Numbered from the stretch's first letter, positions 10,666-36,800 are shown. The stretch is 64,000 nucleotides of DNA from Escherichia phage vB_EcoP-ZQ2 (NC_070874.1), one strand, 5' to 3'. Notes: generated from the sequence alone by a model not told the origin. Made by a program: numbers and translations.

Positions 10666-11376
10666 ATGCAGAAATTATCGGAAGTATATCGTGGCTTAGC
10701 ACTAAGTACCTTGAAGGGTACTGGTGCAGTCACGGATGACAGATTAGGCATTGAGCCAGACAGTAAGCCAGAAATATTGGCTGCTATTAATGAAGGGTTG
10801 GTACGATTGCATAGTCGTTTCCCTCTCCGAACTAATAGCTGCATTGTGGAGATGAAAGAAGGTCGTACTGACTACCCTCTTCAATCTCGGTATGCTTACT
10901 CCCGGTTTACTAAACCTACTCTTGAGATTCAATATCCATATATCATGGATGGGTTCATGAAACCTTTCCAGGATGACGTTATTAAAATCTTAAATGTGTT
11001 TGATAACTCTGGGAATCGACGTAGACTGAACGACGACTCAGACCCTAATGCAATCTTCACCCCAAGACCTGATACTATTCAATGTATGCGACCTCGACAC
11101 TTCGAGGCACTTAACGTAACTTATCAAGCTAAGCACCCAGTACTTACGGGTGATGAAGAACAGGAAGTTGACTTAGCAGACACGCTAATGACAGCACTTC
11201 ATAACTGGGTGGGTTATCGTTACCACACTGGTTTGAATACTCCGGAAGCTAATGCTAAGGCAGTAGAGTATCTGCAAACGTATGAAAGCATCTGTGGTGA
11301 GGTTGTTGATTACGACCTGGCTAATGGAAGTATTTCAATTACCGAAACTAAATTTGAACAACGAGGATGGCGATGA
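10666..11376 (+). CDS. virion structural protein (N4 gp67-like position)
   Basis: ORF track (236 aa); between terminase and tail fiber; start 7 nt after the terminase stop. Confidence 0.55.
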   Translation: MQKLSEVYRGLALSTLKGTGAVTDDRLGIEPDSKPEILAAINEGLVRLHSRFPLRTNSCIVEMKEGRTDYPLQSRYAYSRFTKPTLEIQYPYIMDGFMKPFQDDVIKILNVFDNSGNRRRLNDDSDPNAIFTPRPDTIQCMRPRHFEALNVTYQAKHPVLTGDEEQEVDLADTLMTALHNWVGYRYHTGLNTPEANAKAVEYLQTYESICGEVVDYDLANGSISITETKFEQRGWR

Positions 11377-14300
11377 ACGCACATACCCCCTTTGATGCAA
11401 ATCAGGATTGGTCTAATCCTTACTGTCAGAACAGTTCCAATGATCCTATGGTAGATGCACTACTTGGTAATGCTTACCATGTGGTTCGAACTGTTTACTG
11501 TAACTTGGGTAACCTGAAACTTATCTATGACTTCCTTAACCAGTATGGAATGGTACTTGGTGTACAGTCTGAAGCAGAACTTAAAGCACTAACAACCAAA
11601 GCTAAGTATGCACGTATCTATGGATTCTCTCGTGCAGGTGACCGTCAGGTAACTGACTACCTGTATGTGGAAGGTGATCGTACGGGTATTATTCCAGACG
11701 ATCCAAAGGCAACCGGTTCGTGGATTACTGTTGCTACTTCTGGTTCTAATAGTGGTGGTACTTCCTCTGGGGAAGGTGCTTATATTCCTTGGGTATACGA
11801 CAATGGTTCTGCTGCTGGTGGGGAAACCACAATCAACGTACCAGATGGTACGGTAGGTGTACCTTTTATCATTATTAATGGGGATATGCAGTATGTAGGA
11901 CGTGGCTTTGAATTTAATGCAGATAGCCTGTCGGTAACTCTGGCTCAACCTCTGGAAGAAGGTGATGAGGTAGTATTCCTTCTGACTGGAGTTCCTGCTG
12001 TACCAGATAATCCTAACGTTAATGACTGGGTTCAGATTAACTGGTTATATAACAATGGTGCTGCTATAGGTGGTGAGCAGGTTATTGCTATCCCTTATAC
12101 CTTCCAGTCTGTTCCTGCTGTGTATAAGAATGGGCTTCGTTTGTATAAAGGATTAGCTACTGAGTCATATACTGCTGACCCGGATAACCAACGTATACTT
12201 CTTACAGAACCACTGGCAACCAATGACCGGCTAATTGTGCAGATTGGTGGTGAAGCACAGGTACTGGAAACAGCAGACCATACCCTTCAGGAAGTTGCTC
12301 GTGCTACTAACGTTAAGGATAGTGAGGTAATTCTTAGTACAGATACTACCCAGTTCCTGAATAATAAGAAGGTTATTTATTCTGTTAGTGAGCAGAAAGC
12401 ATATGGATTACCTGTACTACCAACTAACGTATTCATTCAGTCTGTAAGCAATGGCAAGTTAATTTACTCACCTGGATCCATTGAAGTAGACCTAATCCCC
12501 GTACCCAATTCTGCAGAGAGTTTGGAACAGGCACTGTCAGCTGAAAATGGTGCATCGTTGATTGTAGATAAACTCCCGTATGCTGGAGCAGTACCAAGAA
12601 CCCAGCACGATATAAATTCACAATTTAGTAATATTCTTGACTTTCTAGGCGATGGGTATGATGGCACTACGGATGCTGCAGGAGCCTTTATCTCTGCCAA
12701 CACACTCGTTCCGAAAAGTAGAGAGATTGTTGTTCCAAGTGGGGTGTATCTTCTCAATAGTGACGTGGATTGTTCCGGTCGCCGTTTTACATTTGAGGAG
12801 CCTGTGACATTTACTGGTATTGGTAAGTTCTACCGGGCTATTGTCAATAGAATTATGCCGGATGGAACAACTCGGGTTTCTCAGTGGGCCAAACCAGGAA
12901 CTACCGAATATATGACGGCATCTGCTGTTTTCGGTGACAATGGGGCTACAGCAACTGGCATTCAGATTGGTGGAGCTGTGCCATACAATGGCACAGATGG
13001 TGTCATGATGTTTACCGATGGTAGCTCTGGGTGGTTAGGTGTTCGTGCATCTAAGTGGCCCCACCCTACGGAAATGGCGATATATCCAAGCTCTAAAGCT
13101 GGGTCATGTCAGACAATCTCAGGCAGTAATGCTGTAAAAAGACTGTCGGGTGCTAGCATTACGGCTGAAGCGATTGGGAAACCAATTTCCATCTATGATT
13201 CCCTATATACCATATCGACCATAACAGCAGATGGTTTTACTGTTAAGAATATTAATGGAACACCCGTTACTTGGGGGTCAACGGCAACTCACTCATTCAT
13301 TTTATGCTATTACAATGGTAGTGGTTTGTGCAGCGTATCTGGTACTACTGTGACACGTATTAGTGGCGACCCATTTGTAATTCCTGACCCGACAGTACCA
13401 CAAACAATGACTATAAACGGTATTGACTACCGTGTAGTGTCTTTTACAGACCCTCAACATGTTACCCTTAATTCTGCTCCAGGGGATTCAGCGTTAACGG
13501 AATATAAATTCTGGGGCACAGTCAATAGCCTTAACTCTGCTCTTAGGATTCATCGACTCAATGCTGCTGGGTTTGAGGAAAATATTAGTCTCATTGCTAA
13601 TAATGCTGGCTATTTTGCATTACACGCCGCAGCTGGTAACCCAGCCAATGAGCAGTATCCAATCTATATTGGGTCAGGTTGGGAAGATAACGGACAGATG
13701 CGTAAGAGTATTATCTCTGCAGGTAATGGAGATGTAACTCTTGGTGGGGGTTATGGAAATGGGCCGTTATACGTGCCATATAATCAAACATCTGGCCGCC
13801 CGCAAGTCATGGTGGATAACAGTACGGGTACAGCCACCATTTCGTCTACTGGCGGACCTACTCCGGATGCATCGTTAGCTATTAAAGCTAAGGGTACAGG
13901 TAGGGTTGTGTTTCACTCCGAGGTCGGGGTTAACGCTGCGATATACCCCTACATAGATAACGTTTATTCATGCGGTCAATCCGGGAATAGGTGGTCACAG
14001 ATATGGGCATCGAACGCCACCATCCAGACTTCTGATGGGACGACAAAAACTGCAGTTCAAGCATCCGACTTATCTACAGACTTTATTCTTGGTCTAAACC
14101 CTGTTTCTTATAAGAACATTGTCGGGGGAAATGTTGTAGAAGAGGTTGAAGATGGCGTAGAAGAAATTGAACGACAAGTGGTAGAAAAAGTTACTTCTTC
14201 TGAAGAAGTCCATGAACGCGTTGTTGATGGTGATGAAGTCTACTACGTTCGCAAGTTTGTTAACAAGGAAGTAGAACGACCAGTATTTCATGATGTTGAG

Positions 14301-14594
14301 CTGCGTGACGAGCTTGGCAATGTCATTGGTACAATCAAAACACCATTGATGGAAAAAGTGGTTGTTCCAAAAACTCGTCAAGTTATTACGCCAGTACCAG
14401 GGAAACGGACGCACTATGGATTTATTGCACAGGAGGTTAAAGACCTCGTAGACGAATTAGGAATTTCCGATTTCGGTGGGTACGTTGAAGGTGAAGATGG
14501 TAAACTTGGTCTTCGCTACGGTGAGTTCATCTCTCCGATAGTGTCTTGCTTGCAGGATATTATCAAGCGACTGGAACTGCTAGAGAAAAAGTAA
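11367..14594 (+). CDS. tail fiber / appendage protein with C-terminal intramolecular-chaperone (peptidase S74-like) autoproteolytic domain
   Basis: 1075 aa, Gly/Thr/Ser-rich; C-terminal IQTSDGTTK...YGFIAQEV...GLRYGEFISP resembles the SDxxxK cleavage site and conserved C-terminus of tail-fiber chaperone domains. Confidence 0.7.
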   Translation: MAMNAHTPFDANQDWSNPYCQNSSNDPMVDALLGNAYHVVRTVYCNLGNLKLIYDFLNQYGMVLGVQSEAELKALTTKAKYARIYGFSRAGDRQVTDYLYVEGDRTGIIPDDPKATGSWITVATSGSNSGGTSSGEGAYIPWVYDNGSAAGGETTINVPDGTVGVPFIIINGDMQYVGRGFEFNADSLSVTLAQPLEEGDEVVFLLTGVPAVPDNPNVNDWVQINWLYNNGAAIGGEQVIAIPYTFQSVPAVYKNGLRLYKGLATESYTADPDNQRILLTEPLATNDRLIVQIGGEAQVLETADHTLQEVARATNVKDSEVILSTDTTQFLNNKKVIYSVSEQKAYGLPVLPTNVFIQSVSNGKLIYSPGSIEVDLIPVPNSAESLEQALSAENGASLIVDKLPYAGAVPRTQHDINSQFSNILDFLGDGYDGTTDAAGAFISANTLVPKSREIVVPSGVYLLNSDVDCSGRRFTFEEPVTFTGIGKFYRAIVNRIMPDGTTRVSQWAKPGTTEYMTASAVFGDNGATATGIQIGGAVPYNGTDGVMMFTDGSSGWLGVRASKWPHPTEMAIYPSSKAGSCQTISGSNAVKRLSGASITAEAIGKPISIYDSLYTISTITADGFTVKNINGTPVTWGSTATHSFILCYYNGSGLCSVSGTTVTRISGDPFVIPDPTVPQTMTINGIDYRVVSFTDPQHVTLNSAPGDSALTEYKFWGTVNSLNSALRIHRLNAAGFEENISLIANNAGYFALHAAAGNPANEQYPIYIGSGWEDNGQMRKSIISAGNGDVTLGGGYGNGPLYVPYNQTSGRPQVMVDNSTGTATISSTGGPTPDASLAIKAKGTGRVVFHSEVGVNAAIYPYIDNVYSCGQSGNRWSQIWASNATIQTSDGTTKTAVQASDLSTDFILGLNPVSYKNIVGGNVVEEVEDGVEEIERQVVEKVTSSEEVHERVVDGDEVYYVRKFVNKEVERPVFHDVELRDELGNVIGTIKTPLMEKVVVPKTRQVITPVPGKRTHYGFIAQEVKDLVDELGISDFGGYVEGEDGKLGLRYGEFISPIVSCLQDIIKRLELLEKK

Positions 14595-14660
14595 ATAGTT
14601 CTAACGCGTCGTTGTGTATGGTTTTATGAACCTACTAGACCCAAAGTCTTAATAGCACAC

Positions 14661-14682
14661 AAACCCCTCTTCGGAGGGGTTT
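14661..14682 (+). terminator. stem-loop after the tail fiber gene (UUCG tetraloop; weak U tract)
   Basis: 9-bp stem AAACCCCTC/GAGGGGTTT with TTCG loop. Confidence 0.4.
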
Positions 14683-14705
14683 CCTAGAAAAACAAAGAGG
14701 TTGTT

Positions 14706-17057
14706 ATGAACGAAATGTTCTCACAAGGTGGTAAAGGCTCCACTGGTATACTTACCAATAAGCAAGCCATTGCCCGTAAGTTTGGTGTTAAGCAGAATGA
14801 AGTAGTCTACTTTGCTGTAGGTGTAGACTTAGGTGGTTACAAAGTAATCTATGATAAGACTACCCAGCGTGCTTACTCATTGCCCGTACTTCCTTCAGGA
14901 ACCACTGCTGTAAGTCTTAGCAACCAGGCAGTCCTGGTTCATTCAGCAGGTACAGTTGATTTAGGGGAACTGGCTGCTACATGCAGGGAGTTCGTGAACT
15001 TGTCTGACACGTTTGCTACTGGTTTGGTGGTAAATACTAGAAATGAATTACTATTTCATAATGGTATAGGTTATTCATATTTAGGTTCTCTACCTGTAAC
15101 TATTACCGCAGGAACTAACCCTGTTGGCAATGCAGACTGGAAGCCACAAACTGATCCTAATTTGAGAGAAGATTTATCTTCACCTGACCTAAATAAGGGA
15201 GCTTCTCTTGTTACTTTCCACTACTTAGGCGATACGGTGGAAAGCACATTAGGTAACATTCAATCAGTACCTTTTGAGCATTTCGGCGGCGGAACCTCAA
15301 AAACTGGGGAAGAAAACACCGCTGCTTTGAAAGCGGCTATCTCTTCACAGTTTAAGCACATTTGGTTTAATAACGGTCCCTATACTTTCTCTGGGGATAC
15401 TAATTTTACTGGAATCAATGGTAAAATTTTTGAGTCTAATACAAACGCTGCTTTTGTTTTCTCAGGTTTATTTTTTAACTTCAAATCTCCAGTGGACACC
15501 GAGTTCAGGGGGATCACGTTCAGTGCTCCTCCTACCAATACGGTGTTAAACTCCGTGACTCTTAGTAACTTCACTAATATTAAATTTACTAAGTGTAAGT
15601 TTCTTGGTTTTGGGGGAGACACTACAAATACCGCAGGTAGTGCAGCACTCATACTTTATGCTGGTGATTCCGAGACGGCCCAGTATGCTGCTGGTAGTTC
15701 TACTGGTGCTGTTCTTGATGGGTGCTATTTTGACGGCCTTCGCGACCGTTTGTGTAACTTCGCGGTTAGGGTCTACACAGAATTTACTGTGCCGACTGCA
15801 TCTATTGCAACTAATTCCAATAATAAAATCATTAACTGTGATTTTGTCGGGCATAACTGGAACGCAGTTGAAATAGCCGGGCCTAGTACCCACAGCAACA
15901 TTGTTAGTAACTGTTCAGCTACTAACCCAGGACTGTGCCCATTTGACCTGGATAAAGGGACGCACGATAACATCGTAGAAAATATTACGATACGTAATTT
16001 GAAAGGAGACCTTGGCGTAAGTGGGTTCACCCGCGCGTCGGCTGTCAACATTCAGGGTGCCACTGCTGACACCTACTTTGCATACAATAACACCGTTAGA
16101 AATGTAACATGTGTCACAACTAAGGATAATATCGACGCGTATAACGCCACCGGTTTTGGTTCCGGGTTCGCTGCTGTTAGTCTGGCATACTGCTACAACA
16201 ACTTTGTAGATAATGTCACTATGACATGTAACGGTGGTGTTCCGACCAAACCATCAAATGGCACAATGGCATTCTGTCATCTCACGTTTGAATCTATATC
16301 CGGGTGTACCGTTAATCGGGTGTCTACGGTTAACGCGTCTCATGGCATATTAATGACTTCATTCAAAAGTCAATCTATGTCGGCACTTAACGAGCCAAAT
16401 CATTTTTCCACGTTCCGTAACTCTGGGGCCAACCTAGAAGGTGAAATATTTTACGGGTATGCTACCGCAGCGGGTAGTCCATTGAAGATTATCCTCAATG
16501 ACATAGACCTAACTACATCTGGTGCTCAAAGTAACCTTACGTACAACGGACACAAATATGCAATTGTGTACCGCACAGCTGGAAGCTCTGTTAACTATTT
16601 AAGGATTGAGGAAAGCCGCATCGGATTAGCTACTGATTCTAATCTCTGGTTTGCTATGTGCACAGGGCCGCAAATTGGTTTGCGAGAGGTGCAAATCCAC
16701 GATGGCAACGGTACAGCGAATGTTAATAGTCGTTTTATGGAATCCAATGGTTTGTCATTAATAACAAATATTGCTATCGATAACGTATATGGGGATCTAG
16801 AGAGAAAACCTATCCAGATACAGACGGCGTTAGCCGGGCTGACGGGTGGTACGTTTAAACTTGTTGGTGGGATTTCGGATAGTGGGTTACCACAATCTAG
16901 ACCTGTTACGTTATTCGCCAATTCAGCAACCACATTCCCATCAGCTGCTCAGTTTGATACGAATATAATCTTACGTCGTACATCGGCTACTACGGGCCAA
17001 GCGTGGGGATGGATTAGCACAGGAACAGCGTGGGCAGCGTTAGGCTCACTGACGTAG
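14706..17057 (+). CDS. tailspike / receptor-binding protein with parallel beta-helix (pectate-lyase-like) repeats
   Basis: 783 aa; recurring NIVSNCSATN, NIVENITIRN, NNTVRNVTCV, NNFVDNVTMT segments typical of right-handed beta-helix depolymerases. Confidence 0.65.
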   Translation: MNEMFSQGGKGSTGILTNKQAIARKFGVKQNEVVYFAVGVDLGGYKVIYDKTTQRAYSLPVLPSGTTAVSLSNQAVLVHSAGTVDLGELAATCREFVNLSDTFATGLVVNTRNELLFHNGIGYSYLGSLPVTITAGTNPVGNADWKPQTDPNLREDLSSPDLNKGASLVTFHYLGDTVESTLGNIQSVPFEHFGGGTSKTGEENTAALKAAISSQFKHIWFNNGPYTFSGDTNFTGINGKIFESNTNAAFVFSGLFFNFKSPVDTEFRGITFSAPPTNTVLNSVTLSNFTNIKFTKCKFLGFGGDTTNTAGSAALILYAGDSETAQYAAGSSTGAVLDGCYFDGLRDRLCNFAVRVYTEFTVPTASIATNSNNKIINCDFVGHNWNAVEIAGPSTHSNIVSNCSATNPGLCPFDLDKGTHDNIVENITIRNLKGDLGVSGFTRASAVNIQGATADTYFAYNNTVRNVTCVTTKDNIDAYNATGFGSGFAAVSLAYCYNNFVDNVTMTCNGGVPTKPSNGTMAFCHLTFESISGCTVNRVSTVNASHGILMTSFKSQSMSALNEPNHFSTFRNSGANLEGEIFYGYATAAGSPLKIILNDIDLTTSGAQSNLTYNGHKYAIVYRTAGSSVNYLRIEESRIGLATDSNLWFAMCTGPQIGLREVQIHDGNGTANVNSRFMESNGLSLITNIAIDNVYGDLERKPIQIQTALAGLTGGTFKLVGGISDSGLPQSRPVTLFANSATTFPSAAQFDTNIILRRTSATTGQAWGWISTGTAWAALGSLT

Positions 17058-24855: not shown

Positions 24856-25698
24856 ATGATTATGTCTTGTTCTGCTGAGGTAGAAGCTAACCGACTCCTA
24901 GAAGAGTTAACTAAGGGTGATGACTTTACCCTTCCTGATATTGATATGTCCGGCCCTGAATGGGATATCCCAGGTGGAGATGGTTCCCCAATCTTTGGTG
25001 CTATTACTAAGATAACCAATGAATCTCTTACTACCCGTGAAGTAGGTGGTAGTGGTACGTTTGATGCATTAATGGAATCTGCACATAATCACCTTAAAGC
25101 TGAGTTTAAGGCTAACCGTATTACAGGTGGTGAATATACCAAAGCGTATATTGCTATGATGGAATCATGCATGAGTAATGCTGTTCAGTTCTTACTTGGT
25201 CGTGACCAGGCATACTGGGCTGCTGCACTGGCACAGATTCAAGCAGTTACTGCTCGTGTTCAATTGGCAACTACTAAAGCTCAGTTTGTACTGGCTAAGA
25301 TTCAGGCACTGTCTGCTAAGAGTGAATACGCTCTTACTAAGATGAAGATTGCTACTGAATCTGAGACATATTGTGCTGCATTGTTTAACGTTAATCAGAT
25401 GTTACCTCAACAGCTTAAGCTGATTACTGAGCAAACCGAATCACAACGTGCACAGACACTGGATACTCGTACTGATGGTGCAGTAGTTAAGGGTTCTGTT
25501 GGTAAACAGAAAGAACTGTACTCTCAACAGATTACTTCTTATCAACGTGATGCAGAAGTTAAAGCATCTAAGCTGTTTACTGATGCATGGATTACTCAGA
25601 AAACTATTGATGAAGGCTTGAATCCACCAAATGGTTTCACTAACGCAAGTATTGATACCATTCTGTCCAAGCTGAAGTCTAACAACGGGCTGAACTAA
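24856..25698 (+). CDS. virion structural protein (N4 gp54-like position)
   Basis: ORF track (280 aa); helical, Q/A-rich. Confidence 0.55.
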
Positions 25699-25699
25699 T

Positions 25700-28354
25700 A
25701 TGGGTTTATTCAGTGGGAAGACTAAAGTATACGTAGCATCCTCTGTCTATAACATGGCAGGGGATATACATAAACGTCCTAACTATATGAAGACTGTAGT
25801 CATTGGCAATATTATTTCCAATACAGGATTCACTATGGCAGACACTATCTCTGATAGTTATCTGAATGGGCCTGGTATTCGTATGCGATTGTTCTCCAGC
25901 TGGAGCAAGAACCACTATGATTCAGAAGTTGGTATGGCAGGCTCTTCATTAGGTGTACTGGCTAAGATTGACCCTACTGTTATAGAAGGTCAAATTACAC
26001 CCCCTGCTGGAGAGTCTGTTTATGTTCAGGCAGCAGAGATTGGTTTTGCTGACTTTGAGCAATGGTGTGACCAGTATCTTTATGAGAATGCTCCAAGTCG
26101 AATCATGGAACGATTCGACATAGACATTAATGAAGATACTAATGAAATTACGATGACCTCTTTAGATGGAGGTTCCACTATTACATTCACACCTACTAAC
26201 TTTGAACCAGGTGCTTTATATCTCTATGCTGATTACTCTTTCTATAAGTCTCCCTCTACCAATCCACCGGTAGTAGGACCAACTACTGTCTATGATAGTG
26301 AGGGTGACTTACCCTCAACTTTGTTATGGACTACTGTCTCAAGTGATACGACAGCTAATACAGCCAATCTTACTAAGACTATACATACTCATTCCGTCTA
26401 CTCTGATGGTAGACCAGATGAAGACAGTACTGTCACCGAACCAAGTGTAGATAACTGGAACTCTTACGTTAAGGTTTACCGTAGAGGGTTTACAGAGAAA
26501 CCTAATGATGTAACTGTAGTTGTATCTGACAGAGTAATGACACATAAAAAGTTTGGTGAGATACAATCCAGTACTTCTGTAACTACCAATGTAGTTGATA
26601 TAGGTGGAGGAGTTACTCGTACTGATACAATTACTACAACCACAGAGACACTGGTTCGTAAGTACTCATCCCAGACTACTCGCACTGATACTGAGATGAC
26701 TGCTGTTGGTACACCTAAGCTGCTTATCTATAAGCAGAACTCTGGTAACGTTGCACTGGATTCACTGTTTAATACTGAGGCTACTGATAACCGATTCTAT
26801 CCATTCATTCCAATCAGGAATGATAAGCAATGGGTAGAGAACGACCCAATCTACCCACACTGTAAGAAAGCTCTTTATAAAGCTACTGGTGGTAAGCTCA
26901 ATAATGTAATGACGGAGCTTAAGAAGAATAAAGACATAGGTGATATTCAGTACATTTATGGCACATTCGGTGTATCTCTTAATTCTCCTGAAGATACTGC
27001 TAAGGAATACATTTACCGTTTCTTTCAGATGGCTACTGAAGCATTTCCACCTGACCCAACCTACCCGACTTTGGAAGCAGTAATTGCAGGTTATCAGGCA
27101 GCTAATGATGCAGTTGATGCATACGTAGAATGGTGGAACAGGACTGAAGGGCATACTATTGGAACTCCTCCACCACTGCCAGAATACCCTGTAATACCTA
27201 AACGAGAGTTTAGAGTGCATAGTAATAAGCATTATAAATATGACATGACCATTGGTTGGAACTATGTGTCTGAAACTACACATTCAGGGCAAGCATGGGC
27301 TGGGGCTAAGCAGGGACAACTACGAGCCAGGTATGCAGGTGATATTACACTTACCCGTAAGAACATAAGGACAGCTTCTAACTCCGGTTCTGCTAAGAAA
27401 CTCGAGGTAACATATACATTCTATTCAATGCAGGAGTATGAGTTACTTTGGCAGGACGGTAATAACACTTACCGTAAACTCAGAGTACTGGGCCTAAATC
27501 ACTATAACAGGGTGTATAAGAATAAGTCAGTGCACATTGATGTTGCTGGGGCAATGGGTGATGCAGAAGAGAGTGGGTTCATTATCCCACTACACACTAA
27601 CATTTATCGTTCCATGTCACTGGTTCGAAGTACTCAGCTATCCACTGCCTGTTCCTACTTAGTGATGAACTCATATAAGAAGGTTAAGAAGAAATGGTAT
27701 CAGACTGGGGCTTTTAAGATTGTTGTTGTAGTGGTCGCTGTGGTTATCTCTGTATTTACAGCTGGTGCAGGTGGTGCAGGTATACTTGGTGCATATGGTG
27801 CAGTTGGTGCATCTCTGGGTTTTGTTGGATTAGCTGCTGTGATAGTTGGTGCTGTAGCAAATGCTATTGCTGGAATGATTCTGGTATCCATTATCACTAA
27901 AGTATCCACTTCACTGTTCGGGGACAAGCTGGGCTTTATCATTGCTGCTATTGCTTCAATGGTAGCTATGAATGTTGGTACTGCTTTGTCTACTGGTACA
28001 TCCCTATCTACCCTGGCAAGTGAAATGATGAATGCCCAAAACATCATGCAGCTTACCAGTTCAGTAGGTAATGGTATTAGCCAGTATATTAATGCATCTA
28101 CGGCTGCTACTATTCAGAAAGCAGAGAAAGTAATGCAGCAGTACAATACTGATATGATGGCAATCAATAAGCAGTATGAAGAGATGTTTGGTACTGCTGG
28201 GCAGGGTGTAATTGACCCAATGCAATTCGTGTCAATGGAGTCACTGGATTCATTCTTATCACGTACTCTTATGACTGGTTCAGATATAGCTGACCTGTCC
28301 TTAGATATGATAGGTAACTTCTCTGACATGACTCTTAATACTGACTTAGTTTAA
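25700..28354 (+). CDS. large virion protein with C-terminal glycine-zipper transmembrane cluster (candidate ejection/channel protein)
   Basis: 884 aa; residues about 660-770 contain [51 protein letters not shown]. Confidence 0.6.
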
Positions 28355-28367
28355 CAGGAGAATCCCC

Positions 28368-28811
28368 ATGGATTTATCATTTTTAACAGGCAACCAAACT
28401 CCACAGCCAGCTGCTATGTCTTGGATGTCTAATAACAATCAGAACTTTAATACCCCGGCTATGAACTATAACCCTGGTGCAGCTATTGGTATGGGTACGA
28501 ATTTGGGTACATCTGCCCCTACTTCTTTCATGTCTGGTTCAGCTAATCAGTTGGGTCTGAACGTACCAACCTTCCAATTAGGACTGGGTGCACTTGGTTC
28601 ATTAGCTAATATCTATAGTGGTTTCCAGGCTAATAAGTTAGCCAAAGACCAGTTGAACTTTACTAAGAGTGTTACTAACACTAACCTGAATAATCAGATT
28701 AAGTCTTATAACACTGCACTAGAAGACCGTGCTCGTAGCCGTGCTGTTGCAGAAAACCGTGACCAGTCTTCAGCTGATGCTTACATTGCAGCTAACAAAT
28801 TAACCCGTTAA
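28368..28811 (+). CDS. virion protein (147 aa)
   Basis: ORF track; GGAG RBS before the start. Confidence 0.55.
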   Translation: MDLSFLTGNQTPQPAAMSWMSNNNQNFNTPAMNYNPGAAIGMGTNLGTSAPTSFMSGSANQLGLNVPTFQLGLGALGSLANIYSGFQANKLAKDQLNFTKSVTNTNLNNQIKSYNTALEDRARSRAVAENRDQSSADAYIAANKLTR

Positions 28812-28823
28812 TAGGAAACCATC

Positions 28824-30770
28824 ATGGCTCAGATTACATGGCGTAATGTTGATGCACCTAACTTTTCTGGAGTTGGTGACAGCATTCGCACATTTGGAAG
28901 CATGATTGGTAACGCCACCTCCGGCTTAAGTGATGCACTGGGTAACTTCCAGAACGCTGCCAAGCAGGAGGCTGGCAATGCCGTCATGATGAATGCTCTG
29001 CGGTATCAAGACCCTACTGAGTATCGTAATGCTTTGGCATCCGGTGCATTGTTTCAGGGGGTTGACCCTACACTGGTAAACCAACATACCCTCCAGAATC
29101 TGGATGAGCGAGCAGGTACTCTTCTGACTCAACAAGGTCAGCAAGGAACCAATGACTACAACGCTTATAACTTTGGTCGCTTAAAGGATGTTAACTCTGC
29201 ATTAGATAACGCATCCCCAGCTATTCGTTTACTGTCTGAGGCTTATCAGTCTGGTGACCAGAATCGTATTAATGCTGCATTGAGTCAGACTCGTGATGCA
29301 CTGTCTGCACTTCCTGCTGACCAACAACTGGATATGTTGGGTCGTCTACAAGGGCAAGGTGGTCAGGCTATTAACCAAGCACAGAACCGCTTTGATTTGG
29401 GCGTGGCTCAGCGTAATGATGCTGATTCACAAGCTGCATCCGGTATACTGACGGACATCTTCCGTAGTGCTTCCACTCCTATGGATGCACTTACACAGGC
29501 AGAGTCTGCTATGCAAAATGCTTCCCCTGGCGTACGTGCTGCAATTATGCGAGGTGTGAACGAGAGATTCCCAGGTACTTATGCCACGTCTGCTTCTGGC
29601 TCTGCTCCAGGAACTGCTGGTACTCGTTCTGGTTCTCCTTATGATGCAACCTATACCTTTGCTGCTACTGATAAGCCTATTACTGAAATGACACTGGGTG
29701 AGGTTACTAATCATCAACAGAGTATGATTAATAATCCATCACAAGGTCATTCCCCTGTAGGTGCGTTCCAGATTAATAAAGCTACTCTGGAAGACTATGC
29801 ACCTAAAGTACTTGGTTCAGACTGGCGTAATCAGCAAATGACTCCGGAAGTACAGGACAAAATCGCTGAAGCAATCTTCAATGACCGTAAGGGTGGTAAC
29901 CTTTCTAAGACTTGGGCTGCATTGCCTGACCTGGGTGTAGGTGGTTATAAGGATATGCCTTGGAGTGAGGCACGTCAGTTAATTGCACAAGCGGAGGTAG
30001 GAGCACCTCTTGATCAGCAACAGACCCAACAAGTAGTTTCAAAAATGGCAGGCAATACAGTTGCTGCACGTCAGTCTGAAGATAATACTGGAACCATTAC
30101 TGCTAACTATGCTCGTGCATTACGCGACAATTCTACTATTGGTGAAGTAGCAGATCGTCTTCTTAAGGATGCTTTTAAAGGTTCTGAGAAAGGATGGGTG
30201 ATTGCTCGACTGAATGATGTTATGCAGGAATCCGGGCAGTCTCCTGCCGTAGCTGCTGAGATTCTTAAGCAGTCTACTACTAACGTACCTGAAGGTATGA
30301 TTAGTCGAGCACTTGATGCACTTAACCCATTCATCTCTAATGAGGGTGGTGGTGGTATTCGTATTGATGATACCGTTGCCAGAGAACTAGCACGTTCAGT
30401 TCGTCGTGGGGAAGGTATTGAAGCTACTGCTCGTGATAATGTTCTTACACAGGTACAAGGTAATATTGAAAATGCTCAGAATCAGGTAAACCAGGCAGAA
30501 GCCTTGCTTATTGATACTCGCCGTCGTGTGGCTGCTGGGCAAAGAGGACTTGCTGCTACTATTCCTGCCCGTGAGGCTGAGTTAGTAAGAGCACGGGCTG
30601 CACTGGATGCTGCTGTTAATACTGTGGTAGCTAACCAGGGAAACCTGGTTCCACAGAACTTCCGTTCTAATGCTTCAGTAGAACGTGAGCGTAGTCGTGA
30701 AGACGAAGAACGGGCTAAACGTTATCGAAAATTAGCAGAGGGTTTACCTCCCTATATGCAACCTCGATAA
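28824..30770 (+). CDS. virion protein (648 aa), Q/A-rich coiled-coil; function unassigned
   Basis: ORF track; directly upstream of the virion RNAP gene; followed by a terminator. Confidence 0.55.
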   Translation: MAQITWRNVDAPNFSGVGDSIRTFGSMIGNATSGLSDALGNFQNAAKQEAGNAVMMNALRYQDPTEYRNALASGALFQGVDPTLVNQHTLQNLDERAGTLLTQQGQQGTNDYNAYNFGRLKDVNSALDNASPAIRLLSEAYQSGDQNRINAALSQTRDALSALPADQQLDMLGRLQGQGGQAINQAQNRFDLGVAQRNDADSQAASGILTDIFRSASTPMDALTQAESAMQNASPGVRAAIMRGVNERFPGTYATSASGSAPGTAGTRSGSPYDATYTFAATDKPITEMTLGEVTNHQQSMINNPSQGHSPVGAFQINKATLEDYAPKVLGSDWRNQQMTPEVQDKIAEAIFNDRKGGNLSKTWAALPDLGVGGYKDMPWSEARQLIAQAEVGAPLDQQQTQQVVSKMAGNTVAARQSEDNTGTITANYARALRDNSTIGEVADRLLKDAFKGSEKGWVIARLNDVMQESGQSPAVAAEILKQSTTNVPEGMISRALDALNPFISNEGGGGIRIDDTVARELARSVRRGEGIEATARDNVLTQVQGNIENAQNQVNQAEALLIDTRRRVAAGQRGLAATIPAREAELVRARAALDAAVNTVVANQGNLVPQNFRSNASVERERSREDEERAKRYRKLAEGLPPYMQPR

Positions 30771-30786
30771 AATCTTACATACTAAT

Positions 30787-30812
30787 AAAGCCCCATCCGG
30801 GGCTTTTCTCTT
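30787..30812 (+). terminator. rho-independent terminator
   Basis: AGCCCC-ATCC-GGGGCT followed by TTTCTCTTAC. Confidence 0.6.
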
Positions 30813-30855
30813 ACATTCACTTACTGTACAGTGAATCTTCTTATACGATATAAGT

Positions 30856-33800
30856 TTGAACAGGAATCATGCTATGTCAACATTTGACCGTCTGGCAGGT
30901 TTCGCAGACAGCATCACTACTGCTAAGCAAGTCGATGTCTCTACTGCAACCTCTCGGAAACAAGCTGAACAAGGGCAAAACCCTTTCCAATTAACCCCAC
31001 AGAACGCCTACCAGTTACAGGCAGGTCGTGCCGGTGATTTAGGTGCTGGTGCATTTGACCCAGGTTCTATTCAGGCAGATTTTACTAATGCCTCTCCTCT
31101 TGAAATCATAAACAAGTATGGCAATGAGCAAGGAATGGACATTCTTAATGCTCGTGTCAATGCAGCTAATGCTGTTCGTCGTGATTTAACTAAGAGTCGT
31201 ACATATGGTGAAGCACTTGGTGATACCCTTTCTGGTGTTGGTCTTGGTGTTGCTAATACCCTTGGGGGCATTGCTGCTCTTGGCACAGGCTTGGTCAATG
31301 ATAATGCCGGGGCATCCATTGCTTCCGGTCTTGACTGGTTGAACAAAGGTGTACACAACCTACAGTCTGATGCACTGAATGCTCGTCGTAATGTAGTACA
31401 GAACCAGAACGTAATATCTGCACAGGAAAACGAAAAACAATATAAGCAGGATATTGATAAAGGAGAAAGTGAACTCGTTGCTTCCTTGTCTCGTATTGGT
31501 CGGGATGCTTACGATTCAGTTGCTAATACTTTGTCCAATGGCATGGCTGCTACAGATGGTATTGCTGAAGGTGTTGGTTCACTGTTTACTGGTGGTCCAC
31601 TTATCCGTGGTGTATCTGCACTTGGTAAAGTAATGGTAGGTGGGGATAAAGCTGTTAAGGGTATTACCTTAGCTGCTGAATTAGGTTATCGTCCTGCACG
31701 TATTGCACAGACTGCTGGTCGTGTTGCTGCACCTGCTATAGCAATTGGTGGTATGGAAGCTGGTGGTGCATACCAACAGACTGCTAATGAAATTATGGAA
31801 ATGCCATTCAGTGAACTGGCTGCTAAATCTCCTGTATACCAACAACATATTAAAGATGGTTTAACTCCTGAAGAAGCACGACGTCAGACTGCATCTGAAA
31901 CAGGTATCACTGCTGCTGGCTTAACCGCCCCAGTTGCTGCTCTCACTGGTCCACTGGTATCCAAGTTTGAACTTAACCCACTTAAGGTAGGTTCACTGGC
32001 TGGTGCTGGTTCTAACATGCTACGTGAGACTGTGGAGGAAGGTATTCAATCCGGTTTCGGTCAATTCGCACAGAACAAAGCAATTCAGGGTAACGTGGAT
32101 GCTAATCGTGATTTGCTTAAAGGTGTAGGTGAACAAACTGGTCTAGGTGCATTGTATGGCTTTGGTTCTGCTGGGGTTGCTCAAGCTCCTGGTGTAACTG
32201 CTAAGACTGCCGTTGCTGCCGTTGGTCCTGCTGTACGTACTACCCTGGCTGGTGCTTCTCTGGCTGGTAAGGCACTAGCAAAAGTAGCTTCTCCTATTAC
32301 TAACATTCTGGTTCAGCGTGGAGAAGAAGTTGCTAAGCGAAATGAGCAAGCATCTCCTGTATCAGACGTTACGGTTAATGCTGCTGCACAAGAAGCTACT
32401 GCTCAGGCAGAACAGGCTCAAGCAACTGTTCAGGAAGCAGTAGATGCAATGGACATTTCTCCAGAAGAGAAAGCTGCTGCTACTCAGTATGCTGCTGACT
32501 TAACTCAGGCAATGAAGTTTGACCCAGTAGAACTGGAACAAGCTAGTCCAGCAATCCGTGAAGCTGTTTCTGGTTCCACTAACCGTGTTGAAGCTATTCA
32601 GAAGATGGCTGACCTGGTTAATACTGCCGAAGATCCTAACGTTCAAATGGAAGCTGCAATCCAGATGTATGACAACATCATGTCTATGGATAGCTTCATT
32701 AACCGTGACCCAGGTGCATTAGCTAATCTGGAACAGGGTTCTCCTGCTGCTAATATTGTTGACCAGTTCTCCGGTCTGATGGCTAACGTTCAGAATACAC
32801 CGAAGGTACTTCGTGCATTCCGTGCCATCCATTCCATGATTCAGGAACAGGCAGAAGCAGGTAAACTGAAGGCTACTGAAGAAGCTAACCAAGCCCAAGC
32901 AAACAACATTGCTATGGCTGCTGATATGTCTCCAGAAGTACTGGATGCTGATTCAGTGAACATGGTTCTGAAACACGCAAGTGAAGGTAAGATTACGCTG
33001 GGGAATCGTCAGCGTGCTGCCCTGCAATCTGCTGCTGCTCTATTGCAAGGAGCACGAGAATTTGATGCTAAAGCAGAAGAGCTAGGCTTACGTCCTCAAG
33101 ACATTGTTAGTAAACAAATTAAAACCGACGAATCTCGTTCTAATGAAGGCCAGTACTCTGCGTTGCAACATGCTAAACGCATTCGTTCTGCGTATAACTC
33201 TGGTAACTTCGATTTGGCTTCCGCTTATCTCGATGACTTTATGAAGTTCGCCCAGCACATGCAGAATAAGGTCGGAGCGTTGAATGAGCATTTGATTTCT
33301 GGGAATGCGGATAAGAATAAGTCTGTCCATTATCAGGCTCTTACTCCCTCCCGTGAATGGGTACGTAGTCGTACTGGCCTCGGTGTTAATCCGTATGATA
33401 CCAAGTCTGTTAAGTTTGCCCAGCAAGTAGGACTGGAAGCCAAGACCGTAGCTGATATTGCTAACGCACTTGCTACGGCTTACCCGGAGCTTAATGTTTC
33501 TCATGTGAAAGTTACCTCATTGGATTCACGTCTGGACAAGCCTGCTGCCCAGGTAGTTAAAGAGTTCCGTCAGGGCAATCTTGACGCTGCTCAATCCCAA
33601 CAGACTAATGAACCAGTGAATCAGGTTGATGAAACTCCTGTTACAAAACAGGAACCAGTTACCCCTACTGTACAGACTAAACCCTCTGTTAGTGAAGCTG
33701 TTAAAACAGAACCCACTATTAAAGAGTCTAAACCACAGTCTGTAAAAGAACCTGAGAACCAGTCTGAAAAACAGGATACCGTTGATCAGTCTACTGAATC

Positions 33801-36800
33801 TGAAAGGGATGCTTATGTAAAAGAGAATACTATTTCTCAAGATACTCTTAATAAGTATGGCGACCGTAAAGAGAGTCCATGGCTCTTTGCTGATGGTACT
33901 GTTGTTGGTTCTAATGGTGACCACATTAGCTTGTCCGATGTATTTGGACATGATGGTTATCGTGATATGTCACTAGATACAGGTGCTATTCGCTCTACCT
34001 TCTACAAAGGAAGCGAGCAACCATTTGTATCATTGCAACTGTTTGATAATCAGAAACTGACTACTGAACAGTTCAATACTGTTCAATCATTCGTAGAAGC
34101 AAACAATGCACTGATTCAGATTGGTGTAGATACATCTGGGCTTAATACCAATAACGTTGAGAAAGAAGAAGTATCACTGGCTCAATTGAAAGCAGACTAT
34201 ACCGTTGGTGGTAAACCTCTATCTCAAATGGAAACAGTGTTCCCTGTCTATAACAATGAAAAGACACCGAACCAGTTCCTTAAAGCATTCTCTCTACCGG
34301 AAGAACCTAAGTCCCGTACCATTGGTTCTGAATCTCCTTTGACTGATGTTAAGAAAGCACTGTCTTCTGTTGCTCGCTTTGAATCATTCACTCAAAAAGA
34401 AAATAACGCTCTCACAAGTGATGTGATTAAGCGTTACCAGGACTTATTTGATTTTGGTGAAACTCTGAAGACTACTCTGTCTGACCGTCTGGCTAAGTTC
34501 CTTGCTAACAAGAATGTTGGTAAACGTTTTGCAGAAGGTACTGAGGCTAACCGTTGGGTAGGTGGTAAATTACTTAACATCGTAGAGAAAGACGGAGATA
34601 CCTTTAAGTTCAATGACCAGTTGTTAGAGACTGCTGTACTTGCTGGTCTGCAATGGCGACTGACTGCTACACAGAATGCTGCCATTAAAGACATGCAGGA
34701 TGTGGCTGCAATTACTGGTGTAAATGCTTCCTTGTTACCAGAAGGTATCCTTGCAGAGTTTGAGAATGCTCAAACCTTAGTAGAAGCTACTAACTCACTG
34801 GCTCAAAAGATTGAATCTTATTGGGGTCTTAACCGCAATGCTGATGCACCTCTGGGCTATACCAAAGGTATCCCGATGGCAATGGCTACAGAGATTCTGT
34901 CTTCCCTTATTGAGATGGGTGAAGTTAAAGAGTCCATGTTGGATGTGTCTGAAATTGACTCAGAATCTAATAAGACCATTGGCCTGTATACCATTGAGAA
35001 GCTGGATGATACCGACGCCATTAACAAATTCCCTACTGCTATTGAGGAAGCTGTCCTCATAGAACCAGAAGAGAAACTGTACCTGGGTGATGACATTCCT
35101 TCCGTGGCTCCTACTCAGTTACGTAACCCAGCTGTTCGTAATACCCCAGAACAGAAAGCTGCTCTTAAAGCAGAACAGGCTACAGAGTTCTTTGTACATA
35201 CCCCAATGGTTCAGTTCTATGAGGCGTTAGGTAAAGACCGTATCCTCGAACTGATGGGTGCTGGTACTCTGAATAAAGAATTACTTAACGAGAACCACGC
35301 TAAATCGCTGGAAGGTAAGAACCGTTCAGTAGAAGACTCTTATAACCAATTGTTCTCTGTTATTGAACAGGTAAGAGCACAGAGTGAAGACATCTCTTCT
35401 GTGCCTATTCATTATGCATACAATATGACCCGTGTCGGTCGTATGCAGATGTTAGGTAAATATACCCCCCAATCAGCTAAGCTGGTTCGTGAGGCTATCT
35501 TACCTACCAAAGCTACCCTGGATTTATCGAACCAGAACAACGAGGACTTCTCGGGCTTCCAGCTTGGACTGGCTCAGGCATTGGGTATCAAAGTTCATAA
35601 AATGACTCGTGAAACTATGTCAGAAGAACTTACCAAAGCTCTGGAAGGTAAGCTGAAACCTGCTGTAGATATGATGGTTGAGTTTGATAAGTCTGGATAC
35701 TTACCTACTGATGCAGTGGATATCTTGAGAACATCTCTGGGTAATGATAAGTCCTTTGTAGCTCTCATGGCTCTTATGGAGTATGCCCGTTACCTTAACA
35801 GTGATGACCGTGCCAACTTTAATACTCCTCTGTACGTTGAAGCTGATGGTGTAACCAACGGACCAATCAACGCAATGGTATTAATGACAGGTGGTAAGTT
35901 CACTCCAAACTGGATTAAGAATACTGCCAAAGGTGGTTTGTTCTTCGGTAAAGCCGGTAAGACTATGAATGAGCATCATACTCAGGATGATAGTGTTGAC
36001 CTGTATGAAGCATCTACCAATAGTCTGCAATTCCATCTGAATGAATTACGTAATACTTATAGTAAGAATATTCCTGTTATAAACCAGATGGACCATCTCC
36101 AGAAGTTAATGGACCTGTTCATCAAAGACTTCAATCTTAATGAAGATGGTACTCTGGACCTGAAACGTGGTATCGCTAAAAACCCACTAACCATTACTAT
36201 CTATGGTTCTGGTGCTCGTGGTATTGCAGGCAAAATGGTAAGTGCAATTACTGATACCATCTACGAGCGTCTAAGCGACGTTCTGAAAGCCCGTGCTGCT
36301 GACCCTAACATTTCCCCAGCTATGGCGATGTTTGGTAAGGAGGCTGCGTCTGAAGCCGATGCTCAGGCTAAGCTGGATACTTTCCTTACTTCTATGAAAG
36401 AACTGACTGGCAAGATTCCAGCCAAACGTAAAGGTAGGTTATTTATTAAGGAAGTAGAAGGTGCTCTGACTGGCAAGTTAAATCCTCAGAAGTTTACCGT
36501 ATCAGGGGATGCTCTGAAGAACTTACAAGAGAATATGCTGCACTTCTTTGTTGAGCCAATGAGACAAGGTATTCGGTTTACTGTTGGTGAAGGATTAATG
36601 CACTCTACTGAGAACTTGCAGAAGGCTACCCAGATTCAATCTCTGGTATTGCAGGATATGTTCCAGCAAGCAGTACAGGCTAAGCTGGCAGAAAAAGAAA
36701 AAGACCCAACATGGAAGAAAGGTGATTTCTTAACACAGAAAGAACTGAATGAAATTCAGAATAGCTTAGCTCCTCTGGCTCCAATGATTAAAACTGGTTC

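Follow-up and report, generated by a model that had tools for sequence, protein, structure and literature searches.

A conserved apolar segment of a gp53-type tail plug in an N4-like phage is a probable cork of the tail tube

An 884-aa protein encoded in the late region of Escherichia phage vB_EcoP-ZQ2 is, judged by homology, the orthologue of gp53, the tail plug of coliphage N4, and a long apolar segment in its C-terminal part is best explained as the cork of this plug. We consider it probable (about 0.8) that the segment closes the tail tube and that the rest of the C-terminus couples displacement of the plug to the release of gp52, then gp51 and then the virion RNA polymerase (vRNAP) and DNA. 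A preliminary description of the same DNA had taken the segment for a glycine-zipper cluster of an ejection protein, which would form a trans-envelope channel for DNA and co-injected vRNAP. A role in genome ejection was borne out, as gating by the tail plug in the N4 orthologue; the channel was not. The window is the whole stretch of 64 kb of DNA that was analysed.

The open reading frame of 884 codons was confirmed at its described position, and a single nucleotide lies between the TAA of the tail-tube gene and the ATG of the plug gene. The phage itself is, by its sequence, an N4-like podophage of the G7C/pSb-1-like group (genus Gamaleyavirus), and the DNA of the gene shares 94% identity with Shigella phage pSb-1 and 89% with G7C. 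In a phmmer search, residues 1-883 aligned with residues 1-883 of chain Gp53 in PDB 9YFT (9YFT_FA, E=0). The comparison of N4 gp53 with the ORF by tblastn gave 55.6% identity over the full length, and PHROG 2220 was matched with E=0. A weaker alignment was obtained with the 'N4 gp53-like protein' of 9ZE4, which is gp74 of phage DEV. Besides this identity (rounded, 56%), the protein shares with N4 gp53 its length, the position of its gene between gp54 and gp52, the N- and C-terminal knot segments, the beta-feather and an RTLMTG motif in the tail.

The comparison of N4 gp50-gp69 with the window by tblastn revealed a collinear late region, in the order capsid gp56, gp55, tail tube gp54, the gp53-type gene, gp52, gp51 and vRNAP gp50 (Table 1). 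For the tail tube, phmmer yielded 9D80_C of phage Moo19 (E=2e-148) and N4 Gp54 in 9YFT/9YF4 (E=6e-124), and tblastn gave 65% identity to N4 gp54. Pfam and NCBIfam hold no family for gp53, gp52, gp51 or gp54, and a match of the 884-aa protein to an ejection protein was found in none of PDB, Pfam and NCBIfam. A scan for promoters and terminators between 21 and 31 kb detected nothing notable in or around the plug gene. An antisense ORF at 27700-28047 was rejected as a gene; its low-complexity product mirrors the Gly/Ala/Val codons of the plug gene.

Table 1. Positions of the tail plug gene, its parts and its neighbours in the window
Feature	Position (nt)	Strand	Basis
Two tailspike/fibre genes (1075 aa and 783 aa) in the slot of N4 gp64-gp66	11367..17057	+	matches 9D80_D, 9D83_D, 4QNL_A, 4OJ5_A
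Tail tube protein, gp54 orthologue (N4: dodecameric tube)	24856..25698	+	phmmer, tblastn
gp53-type tail plug gene	25700..28354	+	884 aa + stop, homology to N4 gp53
Residues 29-56, N-terminal share of the 'hydrophobic knot'	25784..25867	+	register with N4 29-56
Residues ~186-338, 'beta-feather', optional insertion, four long Ser/Thr-rich strands	26255..26713	+	AF2
Residues 660-673, basic and aromatic flank ahead of the apolar run	27677..27718	+	conservation
Residues 674-720 (N4 gp53 670-716), C-terminal share of the knot	27719..27859	+	HMMER register, hydrophobicity, conserved Gly/Ala
Residues 721-774, second half of the apolar cluster, fourth apolar helix	27860..28021	+	N721, A724/A725, GDKxGxIxG
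Residues 775-884, amphipathic helical tail	28022..28351	+	hydrophobic moments 0.31-0.43
gp52 orthologue, ejection protein, proposed outer-membrane complex	28368..28811	+	tblastn 60% over full length; PHROG 2646
gp51 orthologue, ejection protein, proposed periplasmic tunnel	28824..30770	+	tblastn 46% identity; PHROG 6126
Virion RNA polymerase, gp50 orthologue, 3611 aa	30856..41691	+	tblastn 61-71% identity over residues 1-3500

For N4, the plug, its knot, its monomeric state, its retention on empty particles and the channel activity of gp52 and gp51 have been established by cryo-EM, mass spectrometry and bilayer recordings. Residues 9-724 of N4 gp53 were modelled in an asymmetric map at 3.6 Å (PDB 9YFT; Bellis et al., Nat Commun 2026, PMC13434306). 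The protein, present in one copy, is the tail plug on the 12-mer gp54 tube, showing a globular core plus a beta-feather outside the tube, and its residues 29-56 and 670-716 form six short helices, the 'hydrophobic knot', which corks the tube (PMC13434306). The last ~160 residues lie beyond the model, in the tail lumen; the end of the model corresponds to residue 728 of the protein studied here (PMC13434306). With its domains D9-D10, gp65, the receptor-binding sheath protein, clamps the plug, which results in a gp54:gp65:gp53 symmetry mismatch of 12:6:1, and the plug was observed together with its knot on full particles and, re-seated, on particles that had been emptied in vitro and not on cells (PMC13434306). 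In the scheme proposed by the authors, the plug is displaced laterally when the receptor is bound, and its C-terminus, as it is withdrawn, acts as a 'ripcord' for luminal gp52 (PMC13434306).

That the product is a virion protein, as the preliminary description had supposed, agrees with the presence of the N4 orthologue in the 9YFT virion model and its detection in the virion by LC-MS (PMC13434306). The gp53-like gp70 of Moo19 was likewise found in virions by mass spectrometry, and the 'plug' density at the tube tip of this phage was too weak to model. We infer that the N4 arrangement is carried over to the phage studied here, for which orthology, synteny and fold are established, as are the segment's hydrophobicity and its conservation.

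The fold of the plug family, a globular core with or without a beta-feather, was recognised in the 884-aa protein. Its N-terminus aligns with N4 gp53 without gaps; conservation is among the highest in the first 60 residues, at a mean column identity of 0.67, and AF2 placed helices at residues 29-39 and 46-55. In the beta-feather, AF2 predicted strands at 211-234, 241-266, 272-300 and 306-334 with a pLDDT of about 90, and family members of ~740 aa are devoid of this insertion. Foldseek matches in BFVD to maturation proteins of ssRNA phages (E about 1e-4, probability 0.15-0.57) were rejected and probably reflect generic long beta-sheets. The register of the C-terminal part was taken from an ungapped HMMER block (609-710 versus 605-706), so that the N4 number equals the number used here minus 4. 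Both knot-forming segments of N4 (residues ~29-56 and the apolar C-terminal ~670-716) are thus present in this protein, and both are conserved.

Column conservation was analysed among 245 family members. In the flank ahead of the apolar run, which includes KKVKKKW, K663, K665, W666, Y667 and F672 are each conserved in at least 91% of the members. Within the run, charged residues are essentially missing over 674-729; residues 674-687 are conserved in apolarity alone and residues 694-725 in residue identity. At least 94% conservation was reached by each of G694, G697, G703, G707, G710, A713, G717, N721, A724, A725, G741, G745 and G766. The block 694-725 is followed by GDKxGxIxG, and position 749 is occupied by a small residue in 96% of the members. 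The position-specific conservation of Gly, Ala and a buried Asn over 694-725 argues for tight and specific packing, and it fits a helical bundle better than lipid-facing helices. Further downstream, the C-terminal tail carries the invariant motif ES..FL.RTLMTG (E847, F852, R855-G860). A search with the C-terminal 285 residues retrieved, at E<=1e-3, 1613 clusters formed at 50% identity, and in all of these the module is situated at the C-terminus of proteins of ~670-930 aa.

The stretch of about 110 small and hydrophobic residues which had drawn attention to this gene proved to be real, non-random and conserved in the 245 relatives. Its GRAVY value is 1.66 over residues 674-774 and -0.43 elsewhere in the protein; when the whole protein was shuffled 2000 times, the best window of 101 aa did not exceed 1.08. 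The residues G/A/S/T/V/I/L/M/F make up 90% of positions 676-790. Here, G+A+S account for 42% (21% outside this region) and V+I+L+M+F for another 42% (25% outside), and residues 674-733 form a run of 60 residues free of charge. The string that had been quoted comprises residues 678-725 (nt 27731-27874), nearly all of it within the C-terminal share of the knot, residues 674-720. The cluster belongs to the C-terminal part of the protein, as described, but not to its extreme end: ~110 polar or amphipathic and strongly conserved residues (775-884) come after it. A helical nature, as opposed to burial in a beta-sandwich core, is in agreement with the six short helices seen by cryo-EM in N4 and with helices predicted by AF2, at a pLDDT of 30-40 for residues 721-774 and of 30-50 over the apolar and C-terminal part including the invariant motif, values at which the AF2 monomer model is of little use for this part.

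Four transmembrane-like (TM-like) segments, at about 666-690, 698-733, 722-741 and 744-765, were obtained when a Kyte-Doolittle 19-residue mean (up to 2.5 here) was combined with a Wimley-White octanol dG <0. Within the gp54-gp50 cassette, a Kyte-Doolittle peak >2 occurs only in the apolar segment of the plug, and its TM-likeness exceeds anything in gp52, gp51 or gp50. Such strong TM-likeness is a counterpoint to a simple cork, which has no obvious need for it.

GxxxG-like ridges pack helices in any apolar environment, be it a membrane or not. Transmembrane glycine zippers were reportedly described by Kim et al. in 2005 as GxxxGxxxG-type motifs of channel-forming proteins. We counted such motifs in the apolar region and in shuffles of the same region. 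GxxxG occurs at the expected frequency (2 observed, 2.0 expected, P=0.64) and strict GxxxGxxxG does not occur at all, while the relaxed zipper [GAS]xxxGxxx[GAST] was counted 5 times for 2.9+-1.6 expected (P=0.16). Only for [GA]xxx[GA] was there a modest excess (16 observed, 10.7+-2.3 expected, P=0.02). Of the GxxxG/AxxxA spacing given in the preliminary description, this modest excess stands, and the enrichment of zipper motifs in apolar helices that marks a pore former was not found. A ridge of small residues is visible in the conservation of the family and not in the statistics of the single sequence. It follows G703-x3-G707-x2-G710-x2-A713-x3-G717-x3-N721-x2-A724 and, further on, G741-x3-G745-x3-[G/A]749. 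The segment thus resembles glycine zippers in having a small-residue ridge with a spacing of 3-4 residues on apolar helices, and the consensus of the plug family contains one G741xxxG745xxxG749. It differs in that the 884-aa protein itself has no strict motif, with A749 in place of the third glycine, and in its surroundings: in N4 gp53 the segment forms an intramolecular knot within a tube of protein and not a homo-oligomeric pore in a membrane.

Transferred from N4, these features suggest the following sequence of events. One copy of the plug would close the tail tube of 12 subunits at its distal end, where residues 674-720 and 29-56 would fold together as short helices that form a compact bundle in the tube mouth. 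This cork would keep both DNA and the ejection proteins of the lumen inside, and the conserved small residues would allow very tight packing of the short helices, so that the plug is narrow enough for the lumen. The remaining ~160 residues, the apolar 721-774 and the amphipathic 775-884, would extend up the tail lumen. Upon receptor binding, the plug would be moved sideways and its C-terminal part pulled out. This withdrawal may free gp52 for the pore in the outer membrane, then gp51 for the periplasmic tunnel, and then vRNAP and DNA, with residues 775-884 as the proposed 'ripcord' touching luminal gp52.

The literal form of the earlier idea, in which the protein is ejected and its glycine-zipper helices assemble as oligomers into a channel across the envelope for DNA and vRNAP, could appeal to the composition rich in small and apolar residues and to the position of the gene next to the ejection cassette. 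We regard it as highly improbable. It is contradicted by the N4 cryo-EM structure together with the motif counts given above, that is, zero strict zippers and P=0.16 for the relaxed motif. The N4 orthologue is monomeric, sits externally at the tip of the tube and is kept on empty particles, which contradicts an ejection protein in the sense of an internal, multi-copy and expelled component. As a monomer with about four hydrophobic helices, the protein cannot line a DNA channel of ~35 Å. The channel proteins identified in N4 are gp52 and gp51, with the N-terminal domain of gp50; channel activity in planar bilayers was recorded for gp52 and gp51 and not for gp53, and the orthologues of these two lie directly downstream in the phage studied here. 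Homology of the C-terminal tail of gp53 to gp52, by which the 'double ring' in the N4 lumen might have been explained, was rejected as well (BLASTP E=0.9).

What survives of this idea in a weaker form is a plug with two states. The module of ~100 apolar residues would cork the tube in the knot, and after receptor-triggered release the helices of residues 674-774 would be the first to insert into the outer membrane, anchoring the tip or disordering the bilayer and thereby seeding or orienting assembly of the gp52 pore. It would account for the four TM-like segments, the only such hydropathy peak in the cassette, and for the basic and aromatic flank KKVKKKW. The segment resides at the tail tip, which is first to meet the outer membrane; half of the cluster and the C-terminus lie beyond the N4 model, and relatives of the protein have been annotated by other groups as TM-helix proteins. 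A precedent is gp9 of phi29, whose lumen-plugging loops leave the tube and form a helix barrel (PMC6542822). However, with one copy per virion a barrel like that of the six phi29 gp9 loops is impossible, the N4 plug and its knot were found re-seated in particles emptied in vitro, and the invariant Gly/Ala/Asn pattern favours fixed intramolecular packing over exposure to lipid. We therefore regard insertion into the outer membrane as unlikely. A function of the segment inside the infected cell is hardly credible. In such a scheme the plug would be held in the inner membrane of the host, its basic flank in the cytoplasm, until extraction at tip assembly, or it would have a side role in lysis timing. 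The TM-like profile with its positive flank would fit, and the substitution Q98R in gp53 arose in a rapid-lysis screen of N4; but the lysis phenotype was not reproduced when Q98R was rebuilt in a clean N4 background, no structure or proteomic study gave any signal of this kind, and the conserved residues suit a packed knot.

The tail plug can also be compared with other systems. DEV gp74 (PDB 9ZE4 chain M), seen at 8.5 Å, has the same role as tail plug in a Pseudomonas phage (mBio 2026, PMC12892993). It differs from the 884-aa protein in its length of 740 aa, in the lack of a beta-feather, in ~13% identity in the core and in fewer glycines in the apolar stretch, and it is held by the receptor-binding fibre gp56-gp55-gp54. 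The L-loops of phi29 gp9 are similar in that, in the mature virion of this podophage, the distal lumen of the tube is filled by apolar helices (Xu et al. 2016 and 2019, PMC6542822). These loops, however, belong to the six tube subunits and turn on ejection into a six-fold barrel of hydrophobic helices with a channel of ~32 Å (PMC6542822), whereas gp53 is encoded separately from the tube, is single-copy and is re-seated after ejection in N4. No similarity to phi29 gp9 in sequence or fold was found for the 884-aa protein, and loops of the gp9 type were not detected in it. With the schitovirus ejection proteins N4 gp52/gp51/gp50 (DEV gp73/gp72/gp71) the plug shares one late operon and is functionally coupled, in that it gates their release. 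The ejection proteins are internal, occur in multiple copies, leave the particle on ejection and form channels in bilayers, whereas N4 gp53 is external and single-copy and stays on the particle.

The main difference from N4 concerns the proteins which hold the plug. At E<=1e-3, tblastn gave no match for N4 gp64 and gp65 in the 64-kb window, which leaves about 8 kb of a typical genome outside, so that this absence applies to the window only; every flanking gene was matched. Of N4 gp66, the first 72 residues alone are conserved, and two tailspike genes are found in this place (Table 1). The product of 1075 aa is a fibre like Moo19 and G7C gp66, and the product of 783 aa has an N-terminus like that of G7C gp63.1. 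The clamp in N4's tail-gating complex, consisting of gp65 (D9-D10) with gp64, was accordingly not found in the window. Since gp64 and gp65 have no homologue there, the gating complex must differ and use another partner, as in DEV. By their sequence and position, the two tailspikes are candidate plug holders in this phage. In G7C-like phages the trigger would then come from another contact of the plug, perhaps the beta-feather, with the gp66-like or gp63.1-like tailspikes. In these phages the N4 sheath is swapped for tailspikes, and the way in which they hold the plug bears on the coupling of receptor binding to ejection in phages for therapy of E. coli and Shigella.

The hydrophobic knot is already known as a feature, as it was published in 2026 for the N4 orthologue, and the present results add no new biology in this respect. 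They do allow the gene to be annotated as a tail plug. In PHROGs, the plug family is labelled 'unknown function', and all 56 related GenBank records name the gene 'hypothetical protein', two of them splitting it into two ORFs.

Within the apolar cluster of the plug (residues 674-774 of the 884-aa N4 gp53 orthologue), Asn721 is a single polar Asn set midway along the apolar stretch and is conserved in 98% of 245 relatives. Possibly it lies buried and keeps the helices together through hydrogen bonds. An antisense ORF over the cluster is almost certainly no gene and was rejected; its low-complexity product mirrors the cluster's Gly/Ala/Val codons. Near the end of the plug an invariant motif was found in every aligned family member, including the short forms of about 740 aa; the N4 cryo-EM map does not resolve the region bearing it.

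Coordinates of features in the plug gene, the tail gene locus and the vRNAP gene
Feature	Window position	Strand	Basis or remark
Antisense ORF, 115 aa	27700-28047	-	low-complexity product
Asn721 of the plug	27860-27862	+	conservation among 245 relatives
Invariant C-terminal motif of the plug (residues 855-860)	28262-28279; surroundings 28238-28351	+	family alignment
Fibre, 1075 aa	within 11367-17057	+	matches 9D80_D and 9D83_D (PDB)
Tailspike, 783 aa	within 11367-17057	+	N-terminus like G7C gp63.1 (4QNL)
Gly-rich apolar stretch of vRNAP, SGVGLGVANTLGGIAALGTGLV (residues ~126-155)	31231-31320	+	N-terminal domain

In N4, the plug is clamped by the sheath/receptor-binding protein gp65, with gp64. 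No homologue of these two tail proteins was found within the 64-kb window. The comparison of window 11367-17057 (+) with N4 30758-36192 revealed that their slot is filled here by the fibre and the tailspike, and the conservation of N4 gp66 is limited to its first 72 residues.

The plug gene (window 25700-28354) is labelled 'hypothetical protein' in all 56 of 56 related GenBank phage records. It is broken into two ORFs in pSb-1, Bp4 and vB_EcoS_Uz-1, by either frameshifts or sequencing errors, and the BFVD entries for the protein include fragments of 653 aa and 441 aa.

For the ejection proteins gp51 and gp52, the abstract of the N4 cryo-EM study (Bellis et al. 2026, PMC13434306) assigns the outer-membrane complex to gp51 and the periplasmic tunnel to gp52, whereas its results, figure legends and discussion state the opposite, with gp52 as outer-membrane complex and gp51 as tunnel. 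The assignment used here follows the main text. The N-terminal domain of vRNAP has been proposed as the inner-membrane component of the ejectosome. By appearance, the Gly-rich stretch of this domain resembles a zipper more closely than the plug segment does. As listed, the vRNAP ORF has a TTG start.
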